Positions 10,676 to 20,785 of a stretch of DNA of 64,000 nucleotides are shown in pieces (the stretch's first letter is position 1; each line of letters opens with the position of its first letter). The translations under genes and the position numbers were made by a program. Below the pieces are notes generated by a model. That model was not told the origin of the DNA, searched no databases, and was given only the letters and a program-made list of their open reading frames with translations. Source of the DNA: Roseibacillus sp. (lineage in GTDB: Bacteria; Verrucomicrobiota; Verrucomicrobiia; Verrucomicrobiales; Akkermansiaceae). The stretch spans positions 1,792,001 through 1,856,000 of the forward strand of contig JBPOGI010000001.1 in the NCBI GenBank assembly GCA_051251855.1, in the 5' to 3' direction.

Positions 10676-11257
10676 TTGGACCCCATCGCTACTTGGTTCG
10701 ATAGTCTCCCTGTGATACCCACCCTTCCTGACCCTCAAAGTCCTCTCCGTGAAATCCTTGCGAGCTACCCCTCAGCCCGTAGAGCCCTCTTCGCGGCCTA
10801 CCATATTGGAGGCTGCCAATCCTGTGCTTTTTCTGAAGAAGACACTCTCGCCGAGGTTTGTCGACAAAATGATATCGACGAGCTCAAAGCACGGGAAACC
10901 ATCGCTCAAAGCCATCAAGAAGAGCAAGAACTCCTAATTTCTCCTCACCAACTCCAATCGGAACTCTCTTCTGAGCACCCTCCCAAGCTCATTGACACCC
11001 GCACGCGCGAAGAACACGAAGCGGTAAGAATAGAACCTTCCATCCTGCTGACTGAAAACACCTTATCATCCTTATCTACTGAAAACACGGAAGAGAGAAT
11101 CATCTTTTACGACCATCTTGGCTCCTCCGTTTTCGACCATGTCTCTTGGTTCCGCGGCCACGGCTTTAAGAAATGCTTCGCTCTTGAAGGCGGCATAGAT
11201 GCCTACGCCAAAAATGCCGACCCCTCCCTCGCCCGTTATCGCCTCGAGATGGACTAA
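10676..11257 (+). CDS. Rhodanese-like domain protein with N-terminal Cys-containing (DUF1858-like) domain
   Basis: N-terminal YHIGGCQSC; C-terminal LIDTRTREEH...LEGGIDAY rhodanese signature. Confidence 0.75.
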   Translation: MDPIATWFDSLPVIPTLPDPQSPLREILASYPSARRALFAAYHIGGCQSCAFSEEDTLAEVCRQNDIDELKARETIAQSHQEEQELLISPHQLQSELSSEHPPKLIDTRTREEHEAVRIEPSILLTENTLSSLSTENTEERIIFYDHLGSSVFDHVSWFRGHGFKKCFALEGGIDAYAKNADPSLARYRLEMD

Positions 11258-11327: not shown

Positions 11328-14300
11328 ATGATCTCCTTCTTCGCCCGCAATGACATCGCAACCAACATTCTTATGGTGGCGATTCTTATCGTGGCTGGCT
11401 GGTTTGCAGCGGAGAAAATTCCCTACGAGATCCAACCAAACGAGGTCTATAACGAAGTCCGAGTCAGAATTTCCTATCGAGGAGGTAACCCTGCCGACGT
11501 TGAGCGTGACGTCGCCATCCCCATCGAAAGAGCGCTCGAAGGCCTCGGCGGCGTCAAACGTCTCCGTACCGAGAGCAATCGCGGCGGCTGTGAGATCGAT
11601 GTCGAAGCCAAAGATGGAGTCGACCCCAAAGAACTTCTCGAAGAAGTCAAAGCTCGCATCGATCAGGTCAACACTTTCCCAAGTGAAACCGAGCCTCCAC
11701 GTTACTCTGTTCCATCGAGTGAACAACGGCGTGAAGTCCTTTCCGTTGCCGTTATGGGTGAGCTCAGCCAACACGACCTTCTCAATGCCACCCGCCTAGT
11801 CCGCGACCAAGTCTCAGCCCTCCCCGGCGTATCCACCACAGATATAGCAGGAAACACCCCGCTCGAAATTTCCATCGAAGCCAAACCCGACCGACTCCTT
11901 CACTTCGGCCTCTCCCTCAGCGACATCACCAACAGTATTCGCCGCTCGTCTATCGATCTTCCTGCCGGCCAAGTCAGCACCCCCTCCGGTAACGTGATGA
12001 TTCGCACGACCGGCCAAGCCTACTCCCGCGAACAATTTGAAGACATCGTCCTTCGCTCCCGTGACGGGGCTGAGATTCGCCTTGGAGATGTCGCTACCGT
12101 ATCCGACGGCTTCGAACAAAATCCCAAGATCGTCCGATTTAATGGCACCCCTGCCCTCATTGTCGAAGTCTTCCGTATTGGCGACCAAAGCGCGCTCGAA
12201 ATCTCCGATGCGGTGAAAGAATACGTCCGCACCTCGCCCTCTCGATTACCCTCAGGTATTTCTCTTTCTGTTTGGGACGACGACTCCATTGCCCTCCGAG
12301 GCCGCCTCTCCACCTTAACGAACTCTCTCGTTCAAGGAGCCATCCTCATTCTCATCGTCCTTGGGCTCTTTCTCAGACCCACCCTCGCCCTATGGATCCT
12401 TATCGGCATCCCCGTCGCCTTTGCCGGAGGAATCATTTTCATGCCCCTTCTAGGTGGCACCATCAACATGATGTCCCTCTTTGGATTCATCATCGTGTTA
12501 GGAATCGTCGTCGATGACGCCATTGTTACCGGAGAAAACATTTACACCAAACTTCGCGAAGGTCTCGAACCTACCGATGCGGCCATTCAAGGGACCAAGG
12601 AAGTTTCCACGCCCGTCACCTTTGGAATTATCACCACTGTTGTCGCCTTTATTCCTCTCATGTATATGCCCGACTCTTGGTCCTCGTATACCAAGCCCAT
12701 TCTTCCCGTCGTCGCCCCCGTCCTCCTTTTCTCACTTATTGAGTCCAAACTCATTCTTCCCTGCCACCTCAAACACCTCCGAACCAATCGCGACCGCAAA
12801 CGCCTCAACTGGTTCGAGCGCTTTCAACAGAAAATTGCCCACGGCTTGGAACTCTTTGTCGAAAAAGTATTTCAACCAATTCTCAACCTTGTCCTTCAAT
12901 TCCGCTATGCAGCCCTCGCTACCTTCCTCGCCATTGCGATGGCCTTTGGTGGCTATTGGAAAGGAGGCCACCTAGGATTTGTCACCCTGCCCTCCATGGA
13001 CCGCGATATGATCAACGCTTGGGTCGAGATGCCCAACGACACTCCCTTTGAGGAAACCGATCGAATGGTGAAACGTATGTATGCCGCCGCTCTCACCCTT
13101 CAGGAAGAGTTCACCGACCCCGCCACCGGTCAATCCATCATCACCAACGTCATCACCTCCACTGGCGGTTGGCACTCCCGCCGAAACATTGACCCCCGCC
13201 AAGGCTCCATCGCCTTCGAACTCCTTCCTCCCGAAAGACGTCCCAAGCAATTCTCTCGCATGAGAAATGCCGAAATCTCCCAACGTTACCGCGAAATCAT
13301 CGGCCCATTGGACGAGGAAGTTAGGCGCTTTAACATCTTCGGCGAGATGGGCGGCGGCCGCTACGGCGAAGACTCGGGACGCTCCATTGAGGTCCAAGTC
13401 AATGGACCTCATTCCCCCCAAAAGATGGAAGCCATGGACCGAATCGAAGAACTCTTCGACTCCTACCGACCTCGTGGCATCACTTCTACTTGGCATGATG
13501 CAGAGCGGGGCCGCGAAGAAATCCAACTCACACTTAAACCCCGTGCCACCGAGCTAGGCCTATCCCAAAGAGAACTCGCCTCCCAAGTCCGCGCCGCCTT
13601 CTTTGGCGAACAAGCCCAGCGTATCCAACGCGACCGCGACGACATTCGCGTCATGGTGCGCCTTCCCGAAAAAGACCGCGAAACCCTCGACACTCTCGAC
13701 AACCTCACCCTGCGCGCCCCCGGTGGAGCAGAAATCCCCTTCTCCGCAGCAGCCGACATCAAATTCACTCAGGCACCAGGGAAGCTCAATCGCATCAACG
13801 GTTCCCAGATCAATGAGTTCCGAGGCGAAGTCCGCGACGACGAAGTCCCCATCATGAGCATCGCCAAAGATGCGGCGCCGCAAATCGACGGAATCCTAGC
13901 AGGAACCGGCCTTACCTGGCAATACACCGGATTCATCGCCGACGATGGCGAAACCCTCCGCCGCACCCTCCTCGGCGCCGGGCTCCTTATCCTCACCCTC
14001 TATGCCCTTCTCGCTATTCCCTTCAAATCCATCATCCAACCCCTCTTCGTTTTACTCGCCATCCCCTTTGGCGTTATTGGGGCCATGCTCGGACACATCA
14101 TTCTTGACCAAACTCCCTCTTGGCTCTCGGTATTCGGCATCCTCGCTCTCACTGGCGTCGTCGTAAACGACTCTCTCGTCCTCGTCGACTTTATCAACCG
14201 TCGACGTGAATCCGGCCTCGACCTTCACCAAGCCGTTCTCCAAGCAGGGGCCAGACGCTTTCGTCCCATTCTACTCACTTCCCTCACCACCTTCGCTGGC

Positions 14301-14531
14301 CTCATGCCCCTCATGGCGGAAACCTCTCTCCAAGCCCAATTCCTCAAGCCTATGGCCATCTCCCTCGCTTACGGAATCCTTTTCGCCACCTTCATCACTC
14401 TCCTCCTAATTCCTACCGCCTACCTCATCACCGAAGACATCAAGAACCTCTTCCAAAAATTCTGCCAGTGGTATCAAGCTCCCTTTAAGGACAAAGAACA
14501 GACTCGCAAAGTAGCGGAAGAAAAGGCCTGA
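11328..14531 (+). CDS. RND efflux transporter permease (AcrB/AcrD/AcrF family)
   Basis: 1067 aa with RND topology; motifs GIVVDDAIV and RFRPILLTSLTT. Confidence 0.95.
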   Translation: MISFFARNDIATNILMVAILIVAGWFAAEKIPYEIQPNEVYNEVRVRISYRGGNPADVERDVAIPIERALEGLGGVKRLRTESNRGGCEIDVEAKDGVDPKELLEEVKARIDQVNTFPSETEPPRYSVPSSEQRREVLSVAVMGELSQHDLLNATRLVRDQVSALPGVSTTDIAGNTPLEISIEAKPDRLLHFGLSLSDITNSIRRSSIDLPAGQVSTPSGNVMIRTTGQAYSREQFEDIVLRSRDGAEIRLGDVATVSDGFEQNPKIVRFNGTPALIVEVFRIGDQSALEISDAVKEYVRTSPSRLPSGISLSVWDDDSIALRGRLSTLTNSLVQGAILILIVLGLFLRPTLALWILIGIPVAFAGGIIFMPLLGGTINMMSLFGFIIVLGIVVDDAIVTGENIYTKLREGLEPTDAAIQGTKEVSTPVTFGIITTVVAFIPLMYMPDSWSSYTKPILPVVAPVLLFSLIESKLILPCHLKHLRTNRDRKRLNWFERFQQKIAHGLELFVEKVFQPILNLVLQFRYAALATFLAIAMAFGGYWKGGHLGFVTLPSMDRDMINAWVEMPNDTPFEETDRMVKRMYAAALTLQEEFTDPATGQSIITNVITSTGGWHSRRNIDPRQGSIAFELLPPERRPKQFSRMRNAEISQRYREIIGPLDEEVRRFNIFGEMGGGRYGEDSGRSIEVQVNGPHSPQKMEAMDRIEELFDSYRPRGITSTWHDAERGREEIQLTLKPRATELGLSQRELASQVRAAFFGEQAQRIQRDRDDIRVMVRLPEKDRETLDTLDNLTLRAPGGAEIPFSAAADIKFTQAPGKLNRINGSQINEFRGEVRDDEVPIMSIAKDAAPQIDGILAGTGLTWQYTGFIADDGETLRRTLLGAGLLILTLYALLAIPFKSIIQPLFVLLAIPFGVIGAMLGHIILDQTPSWLSVFGILALTGVVVNDSLVLVDFINRRRESGLDLHQAVLQAGARRFRPILLTSLTTFAGLMPLMAETSLQAQFLKPMAISLAYGILFATFITLLLIPTAYLITEDIKNLFQKFCQWYQAPFKDKEQTRKVAEEKA

Positions 14532-19909: not shown

Positions 19910-20785
19910 ATGAAGTCTTTCCTTCCTCTCCTTTTCATCCCGCTCATGGCCTGCAGCTCCCAGAATCAAGAAACCCCTCCCGAGCTCGGCACCGTCCAAT
20001 GGCAAACCGACCACGACAAAGCCCTCGCCCTCTCTGCCAAATCAGGCAAACCCATCTTCCTCCTTTTCCAAGAAGTCCCCGGATGAGGCCCTTGCAAAGT
20101 CTTCGGGTCCGAAGTCCTCAGCCATCCCCTTCTCGTCGAGTCCATCGAAAGCGATTTCATCCCTCTCCTCATTCGCAACAACAAACCCGGCCCTGAGACC
20201 GAACTATTGGAGAAATACAACGAGCCCTCTTGGAACTTTCCAGTTGTCCGCTTCCTTAGTCCAAAAGGCCAAGACCTTCTCCTCCGCAAGGACCGTCAAT
20301 TCAAGGTCGACCAACTCCTTCCACGCATGACCGAGGCTCTCACAAAATCAAAGAGAACCTCCACCATCCTCCCCCTCGTCCAACCCGAAACCGTCCGCCC
20401 CAGACTCATTGCCCTTTCCCAACATTGTTTCTGGACCGGCGAACTCGCCATCGGAGGCATCGAAGGCGTCACCAGAACCGAAGCCGGCTGGCTCAAAGGC
20501 AAAGAAGTTACCCTCGTCTACTTCGATAGAGAAGCCATCACCCAAGAGCAAATCGTCAAACAAGCCCAAGCCGAATCCTGCGCTGACGAAGTCTTCTACG
20601 GAGCCAACCTCAAAGGCTACCGCCCCGCCAGAGACTCCGACCAAAAGCGCCAACTCCAAGGCACCAAATTCGCCAGAATCAAGAACCTCACTCCCTACCA
20701 AAAAACCAAACTCAACGCCTTCGCCCGCACCAACCCCGCCCGGGCCAAAACCTACCTTACCCCTCGGCAAAAAACTCAGCTATGA
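19910..20785 (+). CDS. Selenoprotein: lipoprotein with thioredoxin-like UxxC domain fused to an MsrA-like domain (291 aa, Sec at codon 59)
   Basis: ATG 19910 gives MKSFLPLLFIPLMAC...KSGKPIFLLFQEVPG, then TGA at 20084-20086, then GPCKVFGSEVLSHPLL..., continuing without a stop into track ORF 20207..20785 (HCFWTGE). SECIS-like hairpin follows; gene is adjacent to selA. Confidence 0.88.
20084..20123 (+). promoter_or_regulatory. Putative bacterial SECIS element
   Basis: Stem CTTCG(G)/(C)CGAAG at 20101-20114 with a G-containing apical loop (GGTC) about 20 nt after the UGA. TGAGG (20084-20088) can also pair with CCTCA (20116-20120). Confidence 0.7.

Follow-up and report, generated by a model that had tools for sequence, protein, structure and literature searches.

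Downstream of selA in the genome of Roseibacillus sp., a reading frame is interrupted by a TGA triplet: does this TGA end a short gene or specify selenocysteine (Sec), and what would the full-length protein do? In the window (the whole stretch of DNA that was analyzed, 64,000 nucleotides), a frame starting at ATG 19910 runs through LMAC and FQEVPG-TGA-GPC, where the TGA (20084-86) is residue 59, and stays open until a second TGA at 20783-85, giving 291 aa with the internal TGA counted as Sec (Table 1). The first-pass annotation had described this frame and had remarked that the plain list of open reading frames reports its 3' part only. Both statements proved correct, as the list calls just 20207-20785 of the 19910-20785 gene.

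Table 1. Features of the locus, in coordinates of the window (CoMsrA, the 1-Cys selenoprotein MsrA of Clostridium oremlandii)
Feature	Position	Strand	Basis or remark
selA, L-seryl-tRNA(Sec) selenium transferase, 440 aa	18534..19856	+	TIGR00474, 456 bits (cut-off 267.9)
NF041383-family selenoprotein gene, 291 aa	19910..20785	+	Predicted signal peptide, Sec-thioredoxin domain and trimmed MsrA-like domain
Signal peptide	19910..19954	+	Lipobox-like LMAC with Cys15; lipoprotein predicted from sequence
Thioredoxin-fold domain	19973..20359	+	Residues about 22-150; Pfam Thioredoxin_7, E 2.5e-10
U59-G-P-C62 redox motif	20084..20095	+	In-frame TGA read as Sec; Cys/Sec pairs, Sec machinery
Bacterial SECIS-type hairpin	20099..20116	+	Stem 20101-05/20110-14, loop GGUC 20106-09
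Trimmed C. oremlandii-type MsrA fold	20396..20782	+	Residues 163-291, helical subdomain included; 4lwj, Z 14.3
C173-F174-W175	20426..20434	+	Equivalent to MsrA catalytic Cys16-Phe17-Trp18 by sequence alignment
E199	20504..20506	+	Equivalent to CoMsrA general acid Glu55, after a 13-residue deletion that removes the Tyr47 loop
C224	20579..20581	+	At MsrA Tyr90 position by sequence alignment; candidate resolving Cys
D244-Q-K-R247	20639..20650	+	Replaces MsrA pocket His137-Gln-Lys-Tyr140

Several lines of comparative evidence make it virtually certain that the apparent stop is decoded as Sec: i) Among 104 distinct loci (30 from the same taxonomic family and 80 further GTDB loci, minus six duplicates), the codon aligned to Sec59 is Cys in 80 and TGA in 24; the fetched loci of the family have TGA in 20/30 and TGC/TGT in 10/30, and the further GTDB loci have TGA in 7/80 and Cys in 73/80; ii) NF041383 is matched in 47 of the 201 genomes of this family (source genome included), and selA is present in all 36 remaining genomes whose match contains a TGA (its position was verified directly for 19 of them) and absent from 8/10 Cys-form genomes; iii) On a quick tree, five changes between Sec and Cys are needed, at least three of them forced by well-supported branches; iv) The genome has selA, selB (331 bits), selC and selD, with all profile scores over the cut-off; selD carries an in-frame TGA of its own, and ARAGORN finds a tRNA-SeC(tca), i.e. 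with anticodon UCA; v) The five further genes of the genus that were fetched as loci all carry TGA at this codon, therefore the TGA is not a private sequencing error. The proposal of Sec at the first Cys of the thioredoxin CGPC motif was thus borne out: the first-pass annotation had asked for homologues with Cys aligned to the TGA and for selB, selC and selD in the genome, all of which were found, and its worry about a sequencing error is countered by the genus. N-truncated fragments without the motif account for 14/120 database homologues. One contig, from what may be the source sample, matches exactly and in full; a short independent contig stops 10 bases past the TGA and was left out of the evidence. 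For the annotation of the locus this means a correction, since gene callers based on stop codons split the selenoprotein gene.

A G-loop hairpin at SECIS distance had also been claimed. The hairpin CUUCG-GGUC-CGAAG has a 5-bp stem and its loop lies 19 nt past the UGA, a geometry that fits the constraints on bacterial SECIS elements (a G in the first two loop positions, a loop of 3-9 nt, a stem of 4-16 bp and a distance of 16-37 nt from the UGA) given in PMC13188914. Its folding energy is no better than that of shuffled sequences (z 0.0 to -0.6), so that its support is comparative: GGUC at +19/+20 is found in 23/24 Sec genes vs 3/80 Cys genes, and GGUC with a stem of four or more pairs in 22/24 vs 1/80, counts in which the pattern was defined after the family had been inspected and the related genes are not independent. 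Within each register the stem shows compensatory changes, and five Sec genes favour an alternative hairpin with an AGGU loop. Genome-wide, the pattern so defined, GGUC at this place with a stem of five or more pairs, occurs at just 25 of 175,629 TGA triplets. The Sec-specific occurrence of GGUC upheld the claim. An Rfam search of the window gave no match.

That the TGA is instead a real stop or an error, so that the locus is a pseudogene or encodes a 58-aa peptide with a distinct ORF behind it, is hardly credible. In its favour, the hairpin is not unusually stable and no Shine-Dalgarno-like sequence is visible before ATG 19910. Against it, 24 distinct loci have TGA at exactly the Sec59 codon and an undisturbed frame before and after it, another 80 have Cys there, the hairpin goes with the Sec genes and the Sec machinery of the genome is complete. 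Scanning for promoters and terminators gave no promoter-like site and, on the plus strand, no terminator.

The 291-aa protein is a member of the catalogued family NF041383 (VPGUxxT thioredoxin-like selenoprotein type 2) and not of a new family, as the first-pass annotation had suspected: it scores 314.8 bits against a curated cut-off of 275 over model positions 1-286/287 (306.7 bits in the genome search). A 2026 review (PMC13188914) lists the family in its table of prokaryotic selenoprotein families as 'hypothetical protein OS_HP5' with the motif VPGU, crediting Zhang and Gladyshev 2007; its OS_HP5 row, as available to us, mentions no function and no MsrA-like half. PMC9312934 names OS_HP5 and, in the portion available, gives no motif; 'HP5' does not occur in the available main text of Zhang and Gladyshev 2007. 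In the open literature, we found no description of the MsrA-like half of NF041383 proteins. The EVPGU motif sits in the thioredoxin fold, and the motif here is UGPC (UxxC), not literally the UxxT of the family name, the +3 residue after U59 being Cys and not Thr. The NCBI-labelled member P0014 has CAGC, xxT occurs in 0/110 motif hits, all of which have Cys at +3, and the motif in the review is VPGU; Thr at this position is therefore apparently not defining for NF041383. With NF041382 (VPGUxxT type 1) the protein has the thioredoxin domain in common (E 2e-29), but the match is limited to this N-terminal domain, and its 102.9 bits fall short of the cut-off of 350. Most of the named relatives belong to Verrucomicrobiota, with others from Planctomycetota, Thermodesulfobacteriota, Acidobacteriota and further groups.

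The linkage to selA, which had been part of the original argument, holds for the genus and not beyond. The end of selA (19856) lies 53 bp upstream of ATG 19910, and selA adjoins the selenoprotein gene in 5/7 genus genomes with the gene (in one with a 4-bp overlap) but in 0/32 genomes of other genera having both genes. The adjacency is therefore a local, genus-specific arrangement, and a general functional link to selA was rejected. In most members of the genus, SelA itself can be aligned to TIGR00474 only up to about position 407 of 455 (other genera, 2-454); its C-terminus is short and divergent, ending ...HHTDPRTL.... Elsewhere in the window (10676-11257), a protein of 193 aa that combines an N-terminal IGGCQSC motif with a C-terminal rhodanese domain is encoded directly upstream of a transporter gene (11328-14531), which we take to be of RND type.

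The protein is probably exported and lipid-anchored, as had been claimed from its signal ending in LMAC. Four genus orthologues have signals ending in LVAC, LMAC, LMAC and LVGC, and one divergent orthologue is without a signal; among 101 homologues, the N-terminus is hydrophobic in 95 and carries a lipobox-like motif in 35. An AlphaFold2 model of the whole protein (pLDDT 93.4, pTM 0.85) has two domains, of which the first (about residues 22-150) is a thioredoxin fold and the second spans 163-291. The best structural match of the first domain is 3f9u (Z 14.8), with DsbH (2ju5) at Z 13.2.

Folded alone, the C-terminal domain reaches a pLDDT of 96.3 and matches CoMsrA (4lwj) at Z 14.3 with an rmsd of 2.3 A over 127 residues, through the helical domain that is described as distinctive of that enzyme (PMC4333827). 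Its top six structural matches are all MsrAs (Z 9.9-6.5 for those after 4lwj), and by hhalign its profile matches the genome's own Sec-MsrA with a probability of 97.6%. Structure prediction, which the first-pass annotation had suggested, thus recovered both a thioredoxin and an MsrA fold and supported the architecture proposed there; the HCFWTGE, GVTRTEAGW and EVTLVYFD stretches are present as described, and the domain is indeed shortened (127 of the 205 CoMsrA residues align). Profiles and folds were needed for this: a single-sequence PDB search with the protein found MsrA at E 0.1 only, PF01625 (PMSR) scored 16 bits, below its cut-off of 23.7, and TIGR00401 gave no match to the domain at E up to 0.001. 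The C-terminal domain occurs in 5/401 genomes of a phylum sample (source genome included), therefore its distribution is patchy.

The active site of this domain was compared with that of CoMsrA, which consists of GCFWG (15-19), Tyr47, Glu55, Gln89, Tyr90, His137 and Tyr140, with Tyr47 and Tyr90 on the hydrophilic, sulfoxide-oxygen side and His137 and Tyr140 in the hydrophobic methyl pocket (PMC4333827). The equivalences rest on sequence alignment to CoMsrA and to the genome's CoMsrA-type protein, not on residue-level superposition, and were followed through 152 diverse relatives, namely two long fusions and 150 sequences found by searching representatives at 50% identity. The motif reads HCFWT here vs GCFWG in MsrA, with Cys, Phe and Trp retained and both glycines altered; C173 is kept in 144/152 and W175 in 137/152. 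The E199 position is Glu in 150/152 and the short spacing due to the missing Tyr47 loop is found in 150/152, with the reservation that hhalign to the genome's Sec-MsrA places the gap differently; in CoMsrA, mutants of E55 lose about 1000-fold in activity (PMC4479559). The C224 position is less constant (Cys in 115/152 diverse relatives, 65/98, but 31/103 close matches). The position of His137 is D/E in 143/152, and that of Tyr140 is Tyr in 59/152 and K/R in 66/152, with Arg here. Thus of the MsrA active-site residues Tyr47, Tyr90, His137 and Tyr140 none is retained (loop deleted; C224; D244; R247). By profile score and pocket residues the domain is outside the MsrA family, and its predicted nucleophile and acid are under strong selection.

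The first-pass annotation had pictured a PilB-like repair enzyme, on which reading the protein would be a genuine reductase of peptide methionine-S-sulfoxide that carries its own selenium thioredoxin, and so a minimal self-recycling enzyme. We regard this putative function as unlikely. The MsrA fold with its Cys, Trp and Glu is there, Pfam PMSR matches at E up to 0.01 in 87/96 family members, some relatives have Sec at the catalytic Cys as Sec-MsrAs do, and msr genes are adjacent in a few loci (see below). But the pocket residues known from CoMsrA (PMC4333827) are gone, Tyr47 by deletion and Tyr90, His137 and Tyr140 by replacement, and in the Neisseria MsrA the proton donor is Tyr82 or Tyr134 (PMC6210582); in addition, TIGR00401 does not match and the genome is already equipped with two full MsrAs and an MsrB homologue. 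Of the earlier picture, the exported thioredoxin plus MsrA-like fold stood, and the methionine sulfoxide repair function came out weaker, given the lost or replaced pocket residues and the missing MsrB domain. One of the two MsrAs is a C. oremlandii-type Sec-MsrA (GMG-U-FWG) with its active site intact (G000:C6:461787-462221, L010), and the other is an exported Cys form with a lipoprotein-like signal (C1:1613901, L009). The genome also encodes a DsbD-type transmembrane domain.

Still less probable, and very unlikely in our view, is a metal- or metalloid-binding module like HMA, CopZ or MerP, with C173 and C224 (and M/H before C173) as ligands kept reduced by the thioredoxin domain. It would account for the second Cys near the site, and has on its side weak sequence matches to copper-binding and MerP/CopZ models (E 0.02-0.06) and structural matches to HMA domains (Z 5.6 or less, about 5.5). 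However, the match to MsrA is much the stronger one and includes the helical domain (Z 14.3 vs 5.5), no CxxC is present in the C-terminal domain, neither W175 nor the invariant Glu at the position of the MsrA acid belongs to the features of HMA domains, and no metal-resistance family was found among the 98 neighbours scanned. HMA/CopZ identity of the domain was rejected on the Z-scores.

Metagenomes hold forms of the C-terminal domain with a predicted Sec of their own. A scan for Sec at the C173 codon returned 17 stretches; ten of these fit the domain profile with E 1e-17 or better, and seven were dropped as short or unrelated. Nine of the ten are stand-alone loci (L150-L153, L155, L156, L161, L165 and L166, two pairs of them near-identical) with hydrophobic N-termini, M[YF]-U-YWTGE and a predicted hairpin downstream; C224 is absent from these stand-alone Sec forms. 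The tenth (L162:325-1275, minus strand) is a fusion in which both sites, EVPGUATC and MDUYWTGE, have TGA. Four of the ten loci, three of them stand-alone, scored below every cut-off in an NCBIfam scan, and the stand-alone domain with Sec at the catalytic Cys is a candidate for an uncatalogued selenoprotein form. Sec tends to mark redox-catalytic residues. Because ten metagenomic relatives carry predicted Sec at the C173 position, the domain is probably a working redox site. At L164:880-942, a short similar piece is followed by GTAAGT, which resembles a splice donor; from this, eukaryotic (perhaps algal) versions may exist.

Sequence comparison also indicates that the two halves are not obligately coupled: i) In 23 of the 47 NF041383-matching genomes the match is partial and below the cut-off, mostly to the thioredoxin domain only; ii) In genus g11 the C-terminal domain is found in 0/23 genomes and the thioredoxin domain in 12/23; iii) Three stand-alone, putatively exported C-terminal domain proteins exist; iv) In the full-length P0006, P0009, P0131 and P0136, CxxC is lost from the thioredoxin domain and CFW/CYW is kept; v) The genus orthologue L034 (G051:C150), which overlaps the selA stop codon, keeps UGPC and the SECIS but has lost the C173 motif and the signal peptide. 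The enzyme had been called self-contained, which applies insofar as both halves lie in one chain here, and is weakened by their occurrence apart, or with one half inactivated, in relatives. Two relatives of 722 aa (P0124 and P0125) join the whole protein to additional domains (PF14559 or PF22316 in precomputed Pfam assignments), and in both the His137-equivalent region reads DNHQR.

On another reading, the Sec-thioredoxin would work in trans, supplying reductant in the envelope to exported proteins separate from it (MsrA, MsrB or peroxiredoxin-like), and the MsrA-like half would be an optional binding or sensing module. Sec forms with only the thioredoxin domain are common, C173 is lost in L034, and some loci adjoin msrA or msrB with N-terminal signal-like sequences or genes of the AhpC/TSA family. 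We consider this reading doubtful at best, as the near-invariant C173 and E199, the stand-alone C-terminal domains, the CxxC-less fusions and Sec at C173 show that the C-terminal domain is under selection of its own.

Among the 104 loci, msrA, msrB or msrPQ adjoin the gene in eight (four have msrA directly downstream, and one each has msrB followed by msrA, msrB alone, msrB/msrA upstream on the opposite strand, and msrPQ), and none is present in the flanking DNA examined of the other 96. By a rough estimate (0.79 Mb of flank, about four such genes per 5-Mb genome), approximately 0.6 would be expected by chance, and the loci behind the count are not fully independent. In a Pirellulaceae locus (L099:3427-4845), a Cys-form homologue has a DUF3179 gene upstream and msrB downstream; DUF3179 is itself listed as a selenoprotein family (PMC9312934).

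The reading we prefer, with a probability of roughly 0.5 for the mechanism as a whole, is that an exported Sec-thioredoxin recycles a remodelled MsrA-type site of altered specificity, of which we infer everything past Sec decoding and fold. Comparison strongly backs that UGA is decoded as Sec via the GGUC hairpin and SelB to give the U59-G-P-C62 thioredoxin site, and that the C-terminal half is a homologue of the 1-Cys/Sec C. oremlandii-type MsrA. In this half, C173, with E199 as the acid, would attack oxidized sulfur of sulfoxide or sulfenic type on an envelope substrate; oxidized C173 would be re-reduced by the Sec-thioredoxin domain, possibly after resolution by C224 through a C173-C224 disulfide, and a DsbD-type membrane relay would feed the Sec-thioredoxin domain. 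With the Tyr47 loop lost and Tyr90, His137 and Tyr140 replaced, the pocket would be opened and repolarized, so that canonical peptide Met-S-sulfoxide is probably not the preferred substrate, or not the only one. This mechanism is favoured by the Sec/Cys pairs, the hairpin of the Sec genes, the CoMsrA fold, the near-invariant C173, W175 and E199, Sec at C173, the msr neighbours and the DsbD-type domain. Against it count the uncoupling of the halves in relatives, L034 without C173, the frequent absence of C224, the restriction of msr neighbours to 8/104 loci, and the recycling of CoMsrA by glutaredoxin rather than thioredoxin (PMC4479559). A possibility that we rate a little below even is that the C-terminal half represents a hitherto unrecognised 'minimal MsrA' class of enzymes (no Tyr47 loop, Cys for Tyr90 and an acid for His137) that comes fused, stand-alone or in Sec form and would reduce an envelope substrate other than canonical peptide Met-S-oxide.

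The interest of the locus thus lies in a previously undescribed remodelling of the second domain's active site, and in the forms of this domain that carry Sec themselves. A selenoprotein family catalogued as 'hypothetical' gains a testable function through a remodelled MsrA site, the residues in question being U59 and C62 of the thioredoxin motif and C173, E199, C224 and D244. If the site is active, MsrA chemistry would be shown to dispense with the conserved tyrosines, or to act on a different substrate, in the envelope of bacteria from Verrucomicrobiota, Planctomycetota and other groups; a 'minimal MsrA' class, if real, would extend the sulfenic-acid chemistry of MsrA to a new substrate class and add a selenoprotein family.

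Besides the NF041383 and NF041382 families, two known systems come close. Like Neisseria PilB (TlpA-like thioredoxin-MsrA-MsrB), the protein has a thioredoxin fold N-terminal to an MsrA-fold domain, probably exported here as in PilB, and feeding by DsbD is plausible. Unlike PilB, it has no MsrB domain (the two domains account for all 291 aa, with no SelR match), its MsrA half is degenerate and of the Clostridium type, it uses Sec, and its thioredoxin domain is closest to DsbH, DsbD-gamma and UAS-like structures. In PilB itself, the N-terminal domain recycles MsrB, and not MsrA, intramolecularly (PMC6210582). No PilB-like fusion with MsrB was found among the longer homologues, which comprise two longer fusions with other domains; this is weak evidence. 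With CoMsrA (4lwj), the C-terminal half shares the fold including the C-terminal helical domain (Z 14.3, 127 residues) and the equivalents of the catalytic Cys/Sec, Phe, Trp and Glu55. The alignment covers 127 of 205 residues, a long helix and the Tyr47 loop being absent from the domain; Tyr90 is replaced by Cys or Val, His137 by Asp and Tyr140 by Arg; and the domain is fused here to a thioredoxin, in a putatively exported protein that has its Sec in the thioredoxin domain.
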